A stretch of 44,921 bases of DNA from Acidobacteria bacterium AH-259-G07 (GTDB lineage: Bacteria > Acidobacteriota > UBA6911 > RPQK01 > JADFOI01), in the NCBI GenBank assembly GCA_027717925.1, contig JALLON010000001.1, positions 1-44,921 of the forward strand. Direction: 5' to 3'. Position 1 is the first letter of the stretch. Every line of letters starts with the position of its first letter. The translations under genes and the position numbers were made by a program. The notes beneath the pieces were generated by a model. It was not told the DNA's origin and made no database searches. It worked only from the letters and a program-made list of their open reading frames with translations. This document shows, one piece after another, positions 7,267 to 31,887 of this stretch.

Positions 7267-8427
7267 CTAGCTCAGGAGGGTCTTCAAGTGCAAGGTCTCC
7301 ACGCGGACCTTCGGGTATCCGATCCACAACCTGAACTTTTTCTCCACGGGTGAAAACACAGCCGCAAAATCCGTGTACATGCCCTGCTCGCCCCGCTGGC
7401 AAATAGCCCCCTGGGGACTGCGGTCGGTCATGATCTCATTTATCTTCTTTTCAGCCCGAGTCAGCCGCAGCGCATTGTCGTAACGACGCCGGCTGTTGGT
7501 GCGGATCGGCTCTCTAGCTTGAGGGTTTGTGCGTGCAAACTCCGCATCCAGAATCTCATTCGTGTGCACCAGAGCGCTTCCCTCCTTCTCCGGCAATACC
7601 GCTGTGCCGGCGGCAGTCTTTTCCACCAGCGAAAGCACTCCATCTGCGTCGCCTAGCAACAGACTAAAACCCCCGGCGTTAATTGGAAGACGACGGATGT
7701 GTTCGATGGCTTCATTGACGGTGGCGCAGTTGGGAAGGATGGTGTGCAGCCCATCCAGAGAATGCATACCTCTCTGGTTGGCAACGGGGCCGTTTATACC
7801 GTTCATCCCCATCGCCAAACCGTGCTCGTTGATGCCAGCGACAGTCCAGATTGTCCCTGCAAAATGGAAATGGACGTGTCGGTGTCCCTGCTCTGGCCGA
7901 GTGGTCTCCATGATGTTCATGCCCAGTTCCCATTCCCGAATATCATCGGTCTTAGACACGAGCGGACGACCCTTCGCATCCCTGAATCCGACGACCGTGC
8001 AACTCCGAACCGGCCAGTCGAAGAAGTGGGCGGCAAAATAAGTTGGCTCATCCACACCCAATCCAGCCGCGATGCCGCGACATTCCTCAAATCCCTCAGG
8101 GTAGACCGCCTCCATGTCCCGCTGCCATTGCTCCAAATCCTTCTTGAAACGTCGTACCAGTTCAGCCCGCGAGGATAGCTCGTGTCCCTCGGCCCTTTTG
8201 CGCAAGTAGCGTTCCATCCAGGGATAGAAGAGATCCCGACAGGCCTCACCTTGCTGCTTGCCGCGTGAAAATGGACTCCCGTGCGTTTCCAGCCTCAGCA
8301 TTTTGCCGGGGGAGGCGAAGAGGTCCCGACCAAGCAAAACAGCAGATCCACCCAATGCCCACAGTCGGCCAAAGTCTCTCCGGCTTATCCCTTTTGCTTG
8401 GACCGACTCTTTGTTTCTTGCATACAT
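7267..8427 (-). CDS. Peptidase C45 / acyl-CoA:6-APA acyltransferase-like Ntn hydrolase with a twin-arginine (Tat) signal
   Basis: N-terminus ISRRDFGRLWALGGSAVLLG matches the Tat motif S-R-R-x-F. The candidate self-processing nucleophile context FFDWPVRSCTVVGF is typical of C45 members. Length 386 aa. Confidence 0.5.
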   Translation of the reverse strand: MYARNKESVQAKGISRRDFGRLWALGGSAVLLGRDLFASPGKMLRLETHGSPFSRGKQQGEACRDLFYPWMERYLRKRAEGHELSSRAELVRRFKKDLEQWQRDMEAVYPEGFEECRGIAAGLGVDEPTYFAAHFFDWPVRSCTVVGFRDAKGRPLVSKTDDIREWELGMNIMETTRPEQGHRHVHFHFAGTIWTVAGINEHGLAMGMNGINGPVANQRGMHSLDGLHTILPNCATVNEAIEHIRRLPINAGGFSLLLGDADGVLSLVEKTAAGTAVLPEKEGSALVHTNEILDAEFARTNPQAREPIRTNSRRRYDNALRLTRAEKKINEIMTDRSPQGAICQRGEQGMYTDFAAVFSPVEKKFRLWIGYPKVRVETLHLKTLLS

Positions 8428-10412: not shown

Positions 10413-11315
10413 TCAGGGCAAATAACGTGGAGAAACTCCGAAGATGAGTGTACACGGCCGATCCGAAGGATTGTAATACTGATGCCGTGTGCCCGCTGGA
10501 AGATAGACACCATCACCGGGTTTCACATCGAACCAGCGAGTCTGACCGCGCTCGTCCACTTTGTCCTCCGGGAGTCGCACGTGCAGGGCGCCTTCCAAGA
10601 GATAAAGACCAGCATCTCCCCCATGCGTGCGTATGTCTGTCTCCCGTCCAGGCAGCAACTTGATTCTGCCCACGGTTACATGGTCCGTGCTCACCAAGAT
10701 TCCAACCAGAACCTGGTTTTTTCCTCCTTCCAGTCGCCACAGAATGTCAGACTCGCGGACAACCTTCGTGCTAAAATTTCGATGAGCTTCCTGCTGGCTG
10801 TCAGGCCAGCGACCGATCCACTGATCCTGAGTGTATTTGGGACTCGATAGTTCCGGCTTCTCTGCGGGAGAAGGCTCGGACCGCGGCGGGATGTAGAATT
10901 CCAACACGCGCAGTGGCTCAGCGCCGTAACTGAAACCGTAATTCCATTTATTTCGACGCAGAAAGCCGGCTTCTCCCTGATTGACACGCTGTACCTCCCC
11001 GGTTTCCGGGTTGTTTAGCAGAAGGGTTCCGCTCAGAACATAGTAGACGGCATCCGTGGCAAACAGAGTCGGAAACCGATCCGAATGACGAAACACTTCC
11101 CCGGGGGCCATTCCATAGATCAGCTGATAAATATTGTCGCTCATGAAATAGAACGAATCGTGTACTTTTCCTGAGGTCTCGTCGCCCCACAAGACACGGG
11201 TTGTCTCCTGGAAGGGAATATGAGTCGGTTGATCGTAATGTTGAGCCTTGCCCAGCGAACACATAAACACAGTCTTTACCGCCAGGAGAACATAAAGTGA
11301 CTTACGAGCTTTCAT
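10413..11315 (-). CDS. Secreted bicupin protein (paralogue of 12699..13610)
   Basis: Signal peptide MKARKSLYVLLAVKTVFMCSLGKAQ. Two cupin barrels; the C-terminal one carries THGGDAGLYLLEG ... YLPAGTRHQYYN. Colinear with the other bicupin along its whole length (shared blocks VLSGTL..NNP..GE, ILWRLEG, LPG..TD...HGGD). Confidence 0.6.
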   Translation of the reverse strand: MKARKSLYVLLAVKTVFMCSLGKAQHYDQPTHIPFQETTRVLWGDETSGKVHDSFYFMSDNIYQLIYGMAPGEVFRHSDRFPTLFATDAVYYVLSGTLLLNNPETGEVQRVNQGEAGFLRRNKWNYGFSYGAEPLRVLEFYIPPRSEPSPAEKPELSSPKYTQDQWIGRWPDSQQEAHRNFSTKVVRESDILWRLEGGKNQVLVGILVSTDHVTVGRIKLLPGRETDIRTHGGDAGLYLLEGALHVRLPEDKVDERGQTRWFDVKPGDGVYLPAGTRHQYYNPSDRPCTLIFGVSPRYLP

Positions 11316-12698: not shown

Positions 12699-13610
12699 CT
12701 ATTTCTTCTCAGGTAAGTAGTTGGGCGCAACCTGAAAGAGCAGAATGGCCGGCTCCTCGGACATATTGAAATACTGATGCGGTGTCCCTTCCGGCACATA
12801 AAAGCCGTCCTTCGGCTCTAGGACAAAAGACTGCTTTTCCCCATCCTGAAAAGTGACAATGTCCAGTGACTTGCCTTCGAGGAAGTAAACACTTTCATCA
12901 CCTCCATGTTCATGACGGTCGGTTTTTTGCCCCGGAAGTATGATCATCTTGCCGGAGGTCAGGTTTTCCGTTGAGGCATAAAGGCCCACCAGTGCTTGAC
13001 CCTCCAGTCGCCACAAGAGATCCGAGTCATCCATGACTTCCATGGTGAAAGTGTCCTCCACCTTAGCTCGGGACATGGGCCATTGGCCGATCCATTTATC
13101 CTGAGCTTCCTTGAATTCCTCCAGAAAGGGTTTCGAGGTCGAGTAGGTGCCGGTAGTTCCGGCAAGTGGTGGTGGGGCAAAATGCTCGAGCACCCGGACC
13201 GGTTCCTTTCCAAAACTGAAGCCGTGGTGCCAGGTATCCTTGCGAAAGAACACCGCCTCCCCTTTATTCACCACATGCATCTCGCCGTTCGCCGGGTTGT
13301 TGATCGCGAGAGTTCCGCTGAGAACATGCCAGACCTCATCGGCTCCGTAAATGACGGGGTTGTCCCTCGAACTTCTGTAAAAGGCTCCTGGAGGCATCTG
13401 GAAAAGGAGTTGATGAATCTTGAGATTGGAGACATAAACGAGATCGGAGGCATACCCCATGGTATCGTTTTCTCCCCAGAAGGCCTTGGTGACCGATGCA
13501 TAAGGGATATGGGCCGGCCCGTCAAAGGTCGGTCGTTGGTACTGCGCCAAAGTCCACGGGCAGAATGTGCAAACTAATACAAAGACAGACAACTTGATCG
13601 AAACTTTCAT
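12699..13610 (-). CDS. Secreted bicupin protein (paralogue of 10413..11315)
   Basis: Signal peptide MKVSIKLSVFVLVCTFCPWTLAQ. C-terminal cupin motifs EHGGDESVYFLEG ... YVPEGTPHQYFN. GGAGG RBS. Confidence 0.6.
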   Translation of the reverse strand: MKVSIKLSVFVLVCTFCPWTLAQYQRPTFDGPAHIPYASVTKAFWGENDTMGYASDLVYVSNLKIHQLLFQMPPGAFYRSSRDNPVIYGADEVWHVLSGTLAINNPANGEMHVVNKGEAVFFRKDTWHHGFSFGKEPVRVLEHFAPPPLAGTTGTYSTSKPFLEEFKEAQDKWIGQWPMSRAKVEDTFTMEVMDDSDLLWRLEGQALVGLYASTENLTSGKMIILPGQKTDRHEHGGDESVYFLEGKSLDIVTFQDGEKQSFVLEPKDGFYVPEGTPHQYFNMSEEPAILLFQVAPNYLPEKK

Positions 13611-21960: not shown

Positions 21961-22359
21961 ATGAGAACGGTAATCGGAGAAGGTCGGTTTGACAAAATCC
22001 TGAATACCCACTACTCGCAGGCCATCCGTGTTAACAACCTGGTCTTTGTGGCTGGCCAGTTGCCAGTAGATGACAATTTCAACATCATGAGCAGAGGCGA
22101 TGTGGGTGCTCAGGCTCAGAAAGTGTTCGAGAACATGAAGTCAGTCCTGGCCGAGGCCGGGGCGACCATGCAAGATGTTGTGCAGGTCGAAATCTTCGTC
22201 AAGAACATCAGACACTTGCCCATTATTGCACCGGCGCGCCGCGAATATTTTGGTCAGAACCGGCCTGTGGCCACGCTTGTTGAAATAAACGAGCTCGTTC
22301 ATCCCGATGCGCTGATTGAGGTGAGCGCTATAGCGGTGATCGACAGTGCAAGCCAATGA
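21961..22359 (+). CDS. RidA / YjgF / endoribonuclease L-PSP family protein
   Basis: 132 aa. Blocks LVFVAGQLPVD, ATMQDVVQVEIFV and ALIEVSAIAV are typical of the family. RBS GAGAGG. Confidence 0.8.
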   Translation: MRTVIGEGRFDKILNTHYSQAIRVNNLVFVAGQLPVDDNFNIMSRGDVGAQAQKVFENMKSVLAEAGATMQDVVQVEIFVKNIRHLPIIAPARREYFGQNRPVATLVEINELVHPDALIEVSAIAVIDSASQ

Positions 22360-22500: not shown

Positions 22501-23775
22501 GTGGATGAGCTAATGCATGCCCGTTGGTGGATGCTGAGTTTGCTCTTTCTCGTGGCTATGATCAACTACGTCGATCGGCAGAGTCTATCCGTGGCGGTGC
22601 CAGCTATCAGAGAACAGTTCAACCTGAGCGCCACAGAGTACGGGCAGATTGTTTTTGCCTTTATGCTTGCCTATGCGATCATGCATCCGATCGCAGGGCG
22701 ATTCATAGATTCAGTGGGAACTCGTAAAGGATTTACACTCGCCGTTGTTTGGTGGTCTGCTGCGAGTATGATGCATGCGTCGGCAAGGGGATTTTGGTCC
22801 TTGGGGGCTTATCGCTTCCTTCTAGGAGTAGGGGAAGCGGGCCTCTTGCCCGGGTCTGTAAAGGCCATTTCGGAGTGGTTTCCTAAATCTGAAAGATCCT
22901 TAGCCGTAGGGGTGACCAATGTCGGCATTACTCTGGGGGCGGTCGTGGCTCCACCGCTCATGACCTGGTTGATCTTAACTTATGACTGGCGTTTCGCTTT
23001 TCTCATCACCGGTCTACTGGGATTTGTTTGGGTGGTATTTTGGCTAATTTTTTACCAAGAACCGGAAACAGGAATGGTTTCCAGCGTGGGGCCAGAAGAT
23101 CTCGTCGAAGTGCACCAGGAGCCCAATTCCGGAGAGGAAGCCAATTCTGACTTTTCGTGGCTGCAGCTTCTAAAGTATCGCCAAGTTTGGGGCCTAATGC
23201 TGGCCAGACTTCTGGCAGACCCTGTCTGGTACTTTTACCTCTTTTGGCTTCCCGAGTACCTCAATCGGGAAAGAGGCTTCAGTTTGAGTGAAATTGGTCA
23301 TTTTGCATGGATCCCATTCGTGGCAGGCATGGTGGGAAACCTGGTGGGAGGATGGATCCCTGGTCAGCTCATAAAGAGAGGATGGTCTTTGACTTGGGCG
23401 AGGAAGGGTGTCACCGTGGCAAGTGCTTTTCTAATGCCCTGCGCGATCTTAGCAGCATTCGTACGAGAAGCCGGCTTAGCAATAGCTCTCATTAGCCTAG
23501 CCGTTTTCCTGATTTGGATCTGGGCTACCAACCTGTTCACATTGCCGGCCGACTTGTTCCCTTCGAAGGTGGTGGGTTCGGTTTACGGATTGTCCGGTGC
23601 GGCTGGAAGCTTTGGGGCCGTCCTTTTCATGCCTGTCGTGGGGGTTATCGTGGATAATTTTTCCTATACCCCGGTCTTCGTCACGGTCGGTTTGTTGCAT
23701 CCGGCAGCCGCTTGCATCATTCTTTTAACCATACCGAGGGTGGAGTTGATAAGTGGGAAACAAAAAACTGCTTGA
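22501..23775 (+). CDS. MFS transporter, anion:cation symporter (ExuT / hexuronate-glucarate-like) subfamily
   Basis: 12-TM profile. The N-terminal block INYVDRQSLSVAVPAIREQFNLSATEYGQIVFAFMLAYAIMHPIAGRFIDSVGTRKGF is characteristic of ExuT-type carriers. Start is GTG at 22501 or ATG at 22513. Confidence 0.75.
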   Translation: MDELMHARWWMLSLLFLVAMINYVDRQSLSVAVPAIREQFNLSATEYGQIVFAFMLAYAIMHPIAGRFIDSVGTRKGFTLAVVWWSAASMMHASARGFWSLGAYRFLLGVGEAGLLPGSVKAISEWFPKSERSLAVGVTNVGITLGAVVAPPLMTWLILTYDWRFAFLITGLLGFVWVVFWLIFYQEPETGMVSSVGPEDLVEVHQEPNSGEEANSDFSWLQLLKYRQVWGLMLARLLADPVWYFYLFWLPEYLNRERGFSLSEIGHFAWIPFVAGMVGNLVGGWIPGQLIKRGWSLTWARKGVTVASAFLMPCAILAAFVREAGLAIALISLAVFLIWIWATNLFTLPADLFPSKVVGSVYGLSGAAGSFGAVLFMPVVGVIVDNFSYTPVFVTVGLLHPAAACIILLTIPRVELISGKQKTA

Positions 23776-23884
23776 ACAAGGATCGCCTCTTTTTGATTTT
23801 CCGTTGATCCTTGGTCACACGGTTAAACCGTGCACAAGCACTCGTTTTGCTAACTTTTGAAGTTTAAAGGGAGGTTTTACAATC

Positions 23885-24733
23885 ATGTTCAAGAAAGGAA
23901 TTTTACCCGGCCTACTCGGGATTGGACTGCTTATGGTGGCGTCCCTTCAGGGTCAGAGTGACGAGCAGATGGAAGTCGTAAGAAAAATTCGAGAAAACAG
24001 GGAACCCACCTTCGGAACGTGGGTCTATCTGAAGGATCCAGCTATAACCGAAATGTTGGCTGACGCGGGTTTGGATTGGATGATCATCGACATGGAACAT
24101 GGGAACTTGAATGAAGACCTGGTTCAGAGTCTCGTGGTTCCCCTGAAGGGCACAAAGTGCGTGCCCTTGGTCCGTATCCCTGAACTCGATAGGGGAATAA
24201 TCAACAAGCTCCTCGATACGGGTGTTCAGGGTATCCTCGTTCCGTTCGTCTACTCAAAGGAGGATGCCCAAAAGGCGGTTCGGTACGCCAAATATCCCCC
24301 GCAAGGAGATAGAGGAATAGGGTACGCGCGTGCACAGGGATGGGGACAAAAGGTGCAGTCCTACTTAGGAAAAGCGAATGACGCTGTGCTGATTGGTCTC
24401 ATCATTGAAACAAAGGAAGCACTGGACCAAATTGATGAGATCCTCGAGGTTCCGGGCATCGATTTCATTTTGCCCGGGACATATGATCTTTCTGGTGCCT
24501 TAGGCGTGATCGGGCAATTTGACCATCCTCTAGTGTTAAAGGCCAAGGAAAAAATTGAGAAGGCTTGTAAGAGAAAGAACATCGCGCTTGCCTCTTGGGC
24601 AATGGGCAAGGAGGGGATCGAAAAGGCGATTAAAGAGGGTTCGAACTTCGTTGCGCTCGCCGGGGATGTCGATTGGATCGGACAGGGGGTCGGGAACTTG
24701 CTAAAAGCGGCACAAGAGGTAACGAGCCACTAG
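23885..24733 (+). CDS. HpcH/HpaI-family 2-keto-3-deoxy-acid aldolase with an N-terminal signal peptide
   Basis: Family blocks: GTWVYLKDPAITEMLADAGLDWMIIDMEHG, PLVRIP, YPPQGDRGIGY, IIETKEAL, GIDFILPGTYDLS. The N-terminus MFKKGILPGLLGIGLLMVASLQGQ looks like a Sec signal. The ATG at 23885 has a strong RBS (AGGGAGG, 9 nt upstream). Confidence 0.75.
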   Translation: MFKKGILPGLLGIGLLMVASLQGQSDEQMEVVRKIRENREPTFGTWVYLKDPAITEMLADAGLDWMIIDMEHGNLNEDLVQSLVVPLKGTKCVPLVRIPELDRGIINKLLDTGVQGILVPFVYSKEDAQKAVRYAKYPPQGDRGIGYARAQGWGQKVQSYLGKANDAVLIGLIIETKEALDQIDEILEVPGIDFILPGTYDLSGALGVIGQFDHPLVLKAKEKIEKACKRKNIALASWAMGKEGIEKAIKEGSNFVALAGDVDWIGQGVGNLLKAAQEVTSH

Positions 24734-24894
24734 CGCGTAGGGACTGATTTTCGGTCTGGGGTAAGGAAGATGTGGGACGCGCTCGAACTTGAACCTGCTT
24801 CGGGATGCATAAAAAAGTAAAACGCCACGGCTTGATAGAAAGCAGCAGGTTGTTGCTTCGCCAATCAACCAATGTAAGGGAGCAAGCAGGAAAG

Positions 24895-25701
24895 ATGAGA
24901 GAGTATGATGTCAGTTTCGAATCAACACATATTCACTTCCTAGAGGAGGGCTCGGGCTTTCCGGTGCTTTTGCTGCATGGTTCTGGCCCGGGCGTCTCCA
25001 CCATGGGAAATTTCCGCAAGGTGCTCGACGGGTTGGCCAATCGATACCATGTGGTGGCGATGGACTGGATCGGATTTGGCAGCTCGGGACAGCTTTCATC
25101 GCCTCCCTACTTCGACATGGCGCTGTGGGAGCGCCAAATACAATTTGCCTTGGACCGCGTGACGGGCGAGAAAGTGGGTATCCTGGCGCACTCTCTCGCA
25201 TCTGTGTTTGCCCTGAAGGCAGCTGCGTCGAACACGAGGGTGTCGAAAATCCTAATGACAGGAGCCATGGGGACTCCGTTTCAAGCGAACGAACACCTGA
25301 CGAGAATTTGGACCTTTCCCGCAACACAGGAGGAATTGCGAAAGGCATTGGAGTGTCTGGTGTATGACCAGAGCGTGATCACTGACGATTTCATTCAAAA
25401 TCGCTTTGAGAACCTTCACCGGGGTAACTATGAAGAGTATTTTTCCTCCATGTTTTCCGGTGACAAACAGCCTTATGTCGATGCCTCCATATTGTCCGCT
25501 GAGCTGCTGCAAGAAATCCAGTGCAAAGTCCTGATACTGCACGGCCGTGATGATTTGCCCATTCCTTTTGAAGAGACCGCGTTGGTACTGGCTAAGAACA
25601 TTCCTCGTGCAGACCTTTGGATCATAGCGCAATGTGGGCATTCCCCTGCCTTGGAGCATCCGAATAAGCTGCTAGCCGCAGCCAAGAGTTTGTTTGGGTG
25701 A
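24895..25701 (+). CDS. Alpha/beta-fold hydrolase, meta-cleavage-product (C-C bond) hydrolase-like
   Basis: The real start is probably the ATG at 24895 (MREYDVSF...), preceded by AAGGGAG, not 24805. Blocks FPVLLLHGSGPGVS, YHVVAMDWIGFGSS, LILHGRDDLPIP and QCGHSPALEHP are colinear with BphD/MhpC-type hydrolases. The nucleophile elbow reads AHSLA rather than GNSMG. Confidence 0.7.
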   Translation: MREYDVSFESTHIHFLEEGSGFPVLLLHGSGPGVSTMGNFRKVLDGLANRYHVVAMDWIGFGSSGQLSSPPYFDMALWERQIQFALDRVTGEKVGILAHSLASVFALKAAASNTRVSKILMTGAMGTPFQANEHLTRIWTFPATQEELRKALECLVYDQSVITDDFIQNRFENLHRGNYEEYFSSMFSGDKQPYVDASILSAELLQEIQCKVLILHGRDDLPIPFEETALVLAKNIPRADLWIIAQCGHSPALEHPNKLLAAAKSLFG

Positions 25702-30951: not shown

Positions 30952-31887
30952 TCAATATTTTTTCACACGCCTGAGTGCCGCAGCCGCATCGGCTCTTAGT
31001 TCTCCACTATCCAAGATGAAAATCTTATAGCCCTCCTCGATGCGCTGTTCAATCGTTTCCGCATTGGCGGGAACACCACACGGAATTCCTTTTTTCTTAC
31101 AGGTAGCCAAGATCTTCCTCATGGCCTGCTGGACTTCAGGGGCGGATGGATCTGCAGGAAAACCCATGGAAGTCGCCAGGTCTAAAGGACCAATAAAGAC
31201 GCTTGAGACACCGGGAACGTCGAGGATGGCTTCTAGGTTCTTCACCCCTTCCGCCTCTTCGATCTGCAAAAATAAAATGATTTCTCCGCCTGGATCTAAA
31301 GGCCAAATGTCGGCCCGTTTTACATACTCTTTTAAGGACAAACCCCAATAGCGCAATGCGATCAGGGGCGATACACCTCTCAAACCTGGAGGGTCAAAAT
31401 CAGGTGCCCCTCTTTCCTGAGGATATCTGGCTGCCCGCACGGCAGCCAGCGCATCTTCAGGAGTGTTAATGTGGGGAAACATCACACCGTATGCCCCCAG
31501 GTCCAGCGCCTGCTTGACAAGGAACTGCAACTGTTCCCGACCATTACTGGGTATGGCCAGAGTGGGGACCACATTGGGGCGCAAAGAGCTGTTTTCTAAG
31601 GGCTCTTGACGCGAAAGCATTCCCTGCAGAAACTGCTGCAGCCGCTCAAAGTCGAGGGCACCGTGTTCCATGTCAATAGTTATAAAGTCAAGCGGCGAAT
31701 CAGCCAGAACGGCCGCGTTAGTTAGCGAGAGATCCTGGGGCGAAATGCCAAAGATGGGCTTGCCCTGCTGCAGGGTTTCAATGATCCGGTTAATTCGCTC
31801 GCGAGACTGAGCCAAAGTGGGGGGAAGAGCGAAGGCAAATAGGAAGACGAAAAACGCAAATGGAGAGAGCTTTTCAAAAGGTTTCAT
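30952..31887 (-). CDS. HpcH/HpaI-family aldolase paralogue with a clear signal peptide
   Basis: The ATG at 31887 gives MKPFEKLSPFAFFVFLFAFALPPTLAQS. Family blocks: LDFITIDMEHGALD, ARYPQERGAP..PGLRGVS, FLQIEEAEGVKNLEAILDVPGVSSVFIGPLDLATSMG. There is no Met between the signal peptide and the conserved core, so the signal cannot be removed by choosing a later start. Confidence 0.7.
   Translation of the reverse strand: MKPFEKLSPFAFFVFLFAFALPPTLAQSRERINRIIETLQQGKPIFGISPQDLSLTNAAVLADSPLDFITIDMEHGALDFERLQQFLQGMLSRQEPLENSSLRPNVVPTLAIPSNGREQLQFLVKQALDLGAYGVMFPHINTPEDALAAVRAARYPQERGAPDFDPPGLRGVSPLIALRYWGLSLKEYVKRADIWPLDPGGEIILFLQIEEAEGVKNLEAILDVPGVSSVFIGPLDLATSMGFPADPSAPEVQQAMRKILATCKKKGIPCGVPANAETIEQRIEEGYKIFILDSGELRADAAAALRRVKKY

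Follow-up and report, generated by a model that had tools for sequence, protein, structure and literature searches.

A predicted Sec-type signal peptide on a catalytically intact HpcH/HpaI-family aldolase of an Acidobacteriota bacterium

HpcH/HpaI aldolases find wide use in biocatalysis and are, by textbook accounts, enzymes of the cytoplasm that take part in the breakdown of aromatic compounds and sugar acids. To our knowledge, all characterised relatives in the family are cytoplasmic. The member considered here, P0001, carries an N-terminal extension with the features of an export signal. Its gene lies in a stretch of 44,921 nucleotides (nt) from the uncultured Acidobacteria bacterium AH-259-G07 (assembly GCA_027717925.1, contig JALLON010000001.1, positions 1 to 44,921 of the forward strand; the whole stretch is called the window below), whose genome is 66% complete. 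Comparative data on the signal, the start site and the catalytic residues make it probable that P0001 is exported by the general secretion (Sec) pathway, processed by signal peptidase I (SPase I) and works in the periplasm as a catalytically competent aldolase.

Three described enzymes are the natural points of comparison. HpaI/HpcH (2v5j, 2v5k, 4b5s; TIGR02311) shares with P0001 the Pfam family, the (beta/alpha)8 fold, the catalytic His and Arg and the Glu and Asp metal ligands, and it provides the best-scoring equivalog model (160 bits), yet the identity is only ~31-32%. HpaI is cytoplasmic and has no N-terminal extension and, unlike the HpaI setting, the neighbourhood of P0001 contains no homoprotocatechuate-pathway genes. 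In the case of GarL (1dxe), the 5-keto-4-deoxy-D-glucarate / 2-dehydro-3-deoxygalactarate aldolase, residues H50, R75, E153 and D179 match P0001 residue for residue. Like garL, which is co-encoded with garP in E. coli, the P0001 gene sits with the gene of an acid-sugar-type transporter of the major facilitator superfamily (MFS). Unlike P0001, GarL is cytoplasmic and without a signal peptide, and GarR and GarK genes are absent near P0001. YfaU/RhmA (2vws), the 2-keto-3-deoxy-L-rhamnonate aldolase, has fold and family in common with P0001, but no rhamnonate dehydratase is encoded near P0001 and RhmA has no signal. Automatic annotation by JGI labels relatives of P0001 as RhmA.

The gene and the residues that define the enzyme are the following:
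23885-24733 (+), complete gene of the aldolase precursor P0001 (open reading frame list, translation, Pfam PF03328, AlphaFold2 and Foldseek)
23954-24730 (+), predicted mature enzyme, residues 24-282, a helix at 26-37 followed by a (beta/alpha)8 barrel (AlphaFold2)
24098-24100 (+), codon of catalytic His72, equivalent to GarL His50 (HMMER alignment to 1dxe; His in 222/226 family rows)
24173-24175 (+), codon of catalytic Arg97, equivalent to GarL Arg75 and HpaI Arg70 (1dxe alignment; Arg in 219/226 rows)
24407-24409 (+), codon of the metal ligand Glu175, equivalent to GarL Glu153 (1dxe alignment; invariant in alignment A3)
24485-24487 (+), codon of the metal ligand Asp201, equivalent to GarL Asp179 (1dxe alignment; invariant in alignment A3)

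The open reading frame (ORF) runs from an ATG at 23885 to a stop at 24731-24733, is the sole long frame there and encodes 282 amino acids (aa). Pfam HpcH_HpaI (PF03328) covers residues 43-262 with 123.1 bits (E 1.3e-35; gathering cut-off 25). The NCBIfam equivalog cut-offs are all missed: HpaI TIGR02311 gives 160 bits against 369, GarL TIGR03239 148 against 407 and NF007849 150 against 393, and RhmA NF007521, the weakest of these matches, 122 against 441. Identification of P0001 as HpaI, GarL or RhmA is rejected because every score is under half of its curated cut-off. An AlphaFold2 model built from 74 homologues is a (beta/alpha)8 barrel with a mean predicted local distance difference test score (pLDDT) of 93.4 and a predicted template modelling (TM) score of 0.88. 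It superposes on solved members (best Foldseek matches 4mf4, 3qz6, 2v5k (HpcH), 4b5w (HpaI), 1dxe (GarL) and 2vws (YfaU)) with TM scores of 0.79-0.91 and root-mean-square deviations of 1.7-2.6 Å. The residues H72, R97, E175 and D201 align gap-free with their GarL equivalents, each being kept in 219-226 of 226 family rows, and D69, E71 and R143 are also conserved in P0001 and throughout its clade. Judged by profiles, alignment and predicted fold, P0001 is a member of the class II metal-dependent pyruvate aldolase family, with a specificity that is not assigned to any equivalog.

P0001 departs from its solved relatives ahead of the barrel. The chains of the latter begin 10-18 residues before it, and the median pre-barrel length among 226 family members is 18 residues, versus 43 in P0001. 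Residues 1-20 lie outside the predicted fold, with a pLDDT of ~55 and no fixed structure. Removal of the first 23 residues leaves 20 before the GTW strand, near the family median. The elements at the 5′ end of the gene are as follows:
23868-23874 (+), Shine-Dalgarno (SD) sequence AGGGAGG, read directly, with a spacer of 10 nt to the ATG at 23885
23885-23953 (+), predicted Sec/SPase I signal peptide, residues 1-23, with n-region MFKK, h-region GILPGLLGIGLLMVASL and a c-region ending in LQG, cleaved before Q24
23969-23971 (+), Met29 codon (ATG), put forward earlier as an alternative start and aligned with the start of signal-less relatives

Translation from 23885 begins MFKKGILPGLLGIGLLMVASLQGQSDEQM and the N-terminus reads MFKKGILPGLLGIGLLMVASLQGQ, as the preliminary description had it; the spacer which it put at 9 nt is in fact 10 nt. 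Its two other points on this region, that an HpcH/HpaI aldolase here bears a signal-like N-terminus and that Met29 has no convincing SD, hold up against the orthologue architecture and the start-site comparison. Upstream of the ATG the frame stays open for 8 codons only and contains no start codon. The in-frame alternatives are M17 and V18, both within the hydrophobic stretch, and M29; neither GGAG, GAGG nor AGGAG was found at -20 to -5 of any of the three. In this genome (GC 53%), SD-like motifs precede 26% of first starts versus 11% of internal ATGs, and the spacers between GGAGG and start codons peak at 6 nt (46 cases), with 10 nt still frequent (15 cases).

The comparison rests on eight signal-bearing orthologues, P0001 itself together with P0003, P0004, P0005, P0008, P0011, P0078 and P0080 (51-65% identity to P0001). 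The ATG that includes the signal is preceded by a GGAGG, at distances of 10, 5, 7 and 8 nt in P0001, P0003, P0078 and P0011, respectively, that is, in all four orthologues compared at the DNA level. In P0003 and P0011, the stretch from the hydrophobic core to strand beta-1 was searched for ATG, GTG and TTG, and none was found. These observations bear on the view that translation starts mainly at Met29 and yields a cytoplasmic aldolase, the upstream 28 codons being a leader, or that dual starts give dual localisation. Two signal-less relatives, P0007 and P0010, do have annotated starts that align with Met29, initiation at Met29 would put 15 residues ahead of the barrel, which is normal for the family, and the soluble partners encoded beside the gene, a RidA protein and a hydrolase, are cytoplasmic. 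The low share of first starts with a clear SD means that its absence does not disqualify Met29. However, the strong AGGGAGG precedes 23885 while nothing SD-like precedes 23969, the aligned position is Ile or Leu in 6/8 signal-bearing orthologues, and P0003 and P0011 have kept an open signal-like extension and the GGAGG with no start codon past the hydrophobic core. An untranslated leader, moreover, would not be expected to keep an open frame with n-, h- and c-regions at a sequence identity as low as that reported below. Because GGAGG precedes the signal-including ATG, and because two orthologues offer no further start ahead of barrel strand 1, the main start is unlikely to be Met29, and we give a purely cytoplasmic or dually localised aldolase little credence.

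Signal calls were made by our own heuristics, combined with comparative data, and the cleavage site between residues 23 and 24 was placed by orthologue alignment. The n-region of P0001 carries Lys3 and Lys4 and is followed by 16-17 uncharged residues with a mean Kyte-Doolittle hydropathy of 2.1. The c-region reads L-Q-G/Q (the slash marks the predicted cut), with Leu at -3, Gly at -1 and Gln at +1; Leu at -3 is tolerated by the -3,-1 rule without being optimal. Lipoprotein and twin-arginine translocation (Tat) routes are ruled out, there being no Cys in residues 1-30, hence no lipobox, and the n-region being free of RR. The genome has a gene for SPase I (TIGR02227, 169.8 bits, contig C212).

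The same architecture recurs throughout the orthologues. All eight have N-terminal extensions, of 21-32 aa, with uncharged runs of 13-18 residues. The net charge ahead of the hydrophobic core ranges from 0 to +5 and is positive in 7/8, the exception being P0003. At the cleavage site, A or G stands at -1 and Q at +1 in 8/8, with A, V, T or L at -3. Pairwise identity averages 18% within the signal and 56% within the mature part; signal peptides typically evolve in this way, holding on to an architecture at low sequence identity. Among very close variants of P0003, the signal segment varies only by E4K, V12L and L17P, which are conservative. Given the pre-barrel length of 43 against 18 residues and an architecture kept in eight orthologues at 18% identity, the extension is, by this comparison, more than chance. 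Taken with the start-site data, the N-terminal segment is very probably translated and evolves like a Sec/SPase I signal peptide.

The cleavage context also fits the habit of the organism. Gln follows AxA in 13/57 signal-like N-termini of the genome, compared with a background of 3.9% (binomial P 2e-7), and the predicted context of P0001 therefore agrees with a genome-wide tendency. This enrichment of Gln at +1 resembles the ‘Q-rule’ described for Bacteroidetes, where Acidobacteria were not reported (PMC5837995). The glutaminyl cyclase PF05096 was sought as an explanation of the +1 Gln and was not found, which is uninformative given the incompleteness of the genome.

A segment of this kind could instead remain uncleaved as a signal-anchor, holding the aldolase on the periplasmic side of the inner membrane, perhaps beside the MFS transporter. 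The uncharged run of 16-17 residues (13-18 in the orthologues) exceeds many signal-peptide cores, P0001 has Leu at -3, Lys3 and Lys4 would give the N-in, C-out orientation, and the aldolase gene adjoins the MFS gene in both genomes that hold the gene cassette described below. For a membrane-spanning helix, however, 13-18 residues that include several Gly and Pro make a short run. The -1 A/G and +1 Gln are strict at the SPase I site (8/8) while the rest drifts, and an anchor needs neither; the A/Q context, in addition, is typical of the other signal-like N-termini of the genome. Permanent anchoring is thus improbable, and cleavage by SPase I is the preferred reading.

How the signal is distributed among relatives gives a second view of its history. 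A scan of 1.84 billion representative proteins returned 13,985 relatives, with identity above 50% in 3 clusters only. An orthologue is present in 2/401 genomes sampled from the phylum, this genome and G136, the Acidobacteriota metagenome-assembled genome OZ244623.1, which belongs to the same order and a different family. The tree (221 rows) was made by a quick method with midpoint rooting, so that directions of change are deduced from that rooting. The P0001 clade comprises 11 rows with a Shimodaira-Hasegawa-like approximate likelihood ratio test (SH-aLRT) support of 100, of which 7 bear signals and 4 form a nested signal-less subclade. Hidden upstream signals in this subclade are rejected by two cases. 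P0006 is truly signal-less, its frame being closed by a stop 17 codons ahead of the ATG, and P0007 starts at the equivalent of Met29, downstream of a hydrophobic relic interrupted by a stop. The region upstream of P0007 (L012 1-160, L013 1-112) contains an in-frame hydrophobic stretch ending ...MGQ/EQ, with a stop after MSPSKL; the identical stop occurs in two independent metagenomes, and the stretch looks like a decayed signal peptide. The tree is most simply read as a single gain of the signal in the ancestor of the clade and a single loss within it. The 7 signal-bearing rows, the nested signal-less subclade, the P0006 stop and the P0007 relic together indicate, at the level of sequence, that the signal is a trait under selection and one open to loss.

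The survey of the family for signal-bearing members, which the preliminary description had raised as a check, found several. Among the rows of the tree, branches with strong support keep apart no fewer than four signal-bearing HpcH groups, and the catalytic residues are kept in all but the second of those listed here:
group 1, the P0001 clade, catalytic residues kept
group 2, two arginine-less paralogues of this genome
group 3, P0106, P0117, P0126 and P0135 with the EF-hand fusion P0168, catalytic residues kept
group 4, containing fusions of a signal, DJ-1/PfpI and HpcH, catalytic residues kept

Signal-bearing members account for ~8% of the 150 best representative clusters and for ~1-3% of 78 metagenome loci, and the P0001 clade itself is rare, as its occurrence within the phylum illustrates. 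Some of the signal-bearing members are fusions: P0088, P0092 and P0100 (metagenomic, 510-873 aa) consist of a signal peptide, a DJ-1/PfpI domain and an HpcH domain with intact aldolase residues, and P0168 has an HpcH domain with C-terminal EF-hands behind a signal-like N-terminus. Both the DJ-1/PfpI-HpcH and the EF-hand fusions are apparently undescribed.

The two members of group 2 are encoded in the same genome as P0001, one of them in the window:
30952-31887 (-), second HpcH-fold paralogue, with the signal MKPFEKL...TLA/QS (translation; Pfam 1.4e-25) and Ala at the equivalent of Arg97

This paralogue has the genome, the fold and a Sec-type signal ending A/Q in common with P0001. It differs in having Ala in place of the Arg; a third HpcH-fold paralogue with a signal (345 aa; contig C79, L004 1237-2274) has Leu there. 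These two form a clade separate from P0001 (SH-aLRT 99), and P0001 keeps the whole catalytic set. On alignment, P0001 is the catalytically intact counterpart of the arginine-less exported paralogue. The paralogue at 30952-31887 had been taken as a second, unambiguous case of export in the family. Its N-terminus is indeed signal-like, but as a precedent for aldolase export it counts for little, since the catalytic Arg is missing both from it and from the C79 paralogue. A fourth HpcH paralogue, on contig C189, is canonical and signal-less and adjoins an aldehyde dehydrogenase gene.

The arginine-less paralogues raise the question of whether P0001 might be an exported protein that uses the HpcH fold for binding or for another metal-dependent reaction, e.g. 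oxaloacetate decarboxylation. Besides the loss of the Arg in these two signal-bearing proteins, this view can call on the failure to reach any characterised equivalog model, and no obvious periplasmic source of a 4-hydroxy-2-oxo acid was identified. It is opposed by the conservation of the four catalytic and metal-binding residues together with D69, E71 and R143 in P0001 and its clade, and by the phylogenetic separation of that clade from the arginine-less one. The chance of a non-aldolase function is accordingly rated as slim, and an exported aldolase is retained as the preferred reading.

The P0001 gene is the third of a four-gene cassette, whose other members are:
21961-22359 (+), RidA/YjgF-family protein, cassette gene 1, no signal (Pfam Ribonuc_L-PSP 1.3e-29; 79% identical in OZ244623.1)
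22501-23775 (+), MFS transporter of the anion:cation symporter type, cassette gene 2, exact start uncertain (Pfam MFS_1 5.9e-57)
24895-25701 (+), alpha/beta hydrolase of the meta-cleavage-product (C-C) type, cassette gene 4, no signal (Pfam Abhydrolase_1)

The MFS protein matches the D-galactonate-transporter subfamily TIGR00893 with 284 bits, below the cut-off of 395, and both it and the aldolase are 65% identical to their counterparts in OZ244623.1. The best solved relative of the hydrolase is CumD (2d0d, 6.9e-42). Its start is likely Met31 (24895) of an ORF opening at 24805, since an SD-like motif precedes 24895 and not 24805; counted from Met31 onward, the hydrolase is 66% identical to the OZ244623.1 gene product. 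The order RidA-MFS-aldolase-hydrolase is kept in OZ244623.1, where the flanks differ. RidA and hydrolase lack a signal in both genomes, and within the cassette only the aldolase has predicted export. On the two sides of the cassette in OZ244623.1 (L005 1813-5857 and 10341-11555) lie a fragment of a phage-type integrase, an rve transposase and a Transposase_mut gene. This bracketing by integrase and transposase genes suggests that the cassette moves as a unit.

Around the cassette, the window resembles an island of the polysaccharide-utilisation type, with four lyases resembling polysaccharide lyase family 10 (PL10), a heparinase II/III-like protein, a sulfatase and an outer-membrane barrel of the TonB-dependent type. 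Most island enzymes carry export signals, two bicupins included. The preliminary description spoke of an otherwise cytoplasmic acid-sugar module. The first half of this label suits RidA and the hydrolase, which have no signals, but not the surrounding island enzymes, which mostly do; the second half is not established, as equivalog scores fall far below their cut-offs and the adjacent hydrolase is closest to CumD. Other orthologues of P0001 occur in contexts that differ from this one, and for this reason the substrate cannot be deduced from context.

The two bicupins, of ~300 aa, are encoded at 10413-11315 (-) and 12699-13610 (-) and have Sec-type signals ending A/Q. The 120 best homologues of the second are mostly 280-295 aa long, without the N-terminal segment, and sit in cytoplasmic sugar operons (GFO/IDH/MocA, ROK kinase, ATP-binding cassette transporter). 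The bicupins thus share the pattern of the aldolase, that of a usually cytoplasmic family predicted to be exported here. At locus L035, P0078 lies directly downstream of orthologues of both window bicupins (55% and 57% identity). A bicupin is absent from OZ244623.1, which has the aldolase cassette, and an HpcH neighbour was sought in three bicupin contexts without success. A functional connection of the aldolase with these bicupins is a weak lead. An AAT-family (PF03417) protein with the Tat-like N-terminus SRRDFGRLWALGG..., encoded at 7267-8427 (-), recurs beside exported bicupins on a different metagenome contig (L116 3702-4931).

These elements can be assembled into a working scheme. Translation would begin at the ATG at 23885, and residues 1-23 would act as a Sec-type signal that takes the unfolded protein across the inner membrane. 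SPase I would then cut after Gly23 and expose Gln24, after which the mature enzyme of 259 residues would fold and take up its metal in the periplasm. There, a 4-hydroxy-2-oxo acid would be cleaved to pyruvate and an aldehyde, or formed from them. Such an aldol reaction is feasible outside the cytoplasm because a divalent metal suffices and no nucleotide cofactor is involved. The adjacent MFS transporter may shuttle products or substrates, and the periplasmic product may be imported and finished inside by cytoplasmic enzymes; import is suggested by the co-inheritance of the gene with an anion-type MFS transporter, RidA and a meta-cleavage-type hydrolase. The data show the fold, the catalytic residues, a conserved signal architecture and start site, a conserved cassette and an SPase I gene; that the protein is exported and cleaved, on what it acts and how the work is shared between the two sides of the membrane are points that we infer.

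Several points weigh against this scheme. Several orthologues have AxA, which is a stronger site than the -3 Leu and -1 Gly of P0001, and an h-region of 16-17 residues is at the long end for signal peptides. Internal initiation at Met29 giving some cytoplasmic product is possible. Both soluble cassette partners are cytoplasmic, which makes for an awkward pathway topology, and with every equivalog model under half of its cut-off no substrate is assigned. The literature searched holds no precedent for a pyruvate-releasing periplasmic enzyme. A full-text search for an exported or periplasmic HpcH/HpaI aldolase gave no description, the phrase ‘periplasmic aldolase’ was unmatched, and the matches in the fungal literature merely list the HpcH Pfam domain.

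In a wider and considerably more doubtful view, extracytoplasmic class II pyruvate aldolases would be a real, recurrent and undescribed class of enzymes. Catabolic steps free of cofactors, such as those of the aldolase and the two bicupins, would have been moved to the periplasm; C-C cleavage would take place outside, perhaps on substrates derived from unsaturated uronates released by the lyases, with the fragments imported by the MFS transporter.

A short signal, a small enzyme and relatives that are readily expressed make the case directly testable, and the sister subclade that has lost the signal offers a natural comparison within the clade. If export of P0001 is true, pyruvate-forming C-C cleavage is possible in the periplasm, and pathway maps built on homology only would misplace such steps. 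Some bacteria would then run a short catabolic route partly on one side of the inner membrane and partly on the other, perhaps so that a reactive aldehyde stays outside or so that a compound for which there is no import is digested beforehand.

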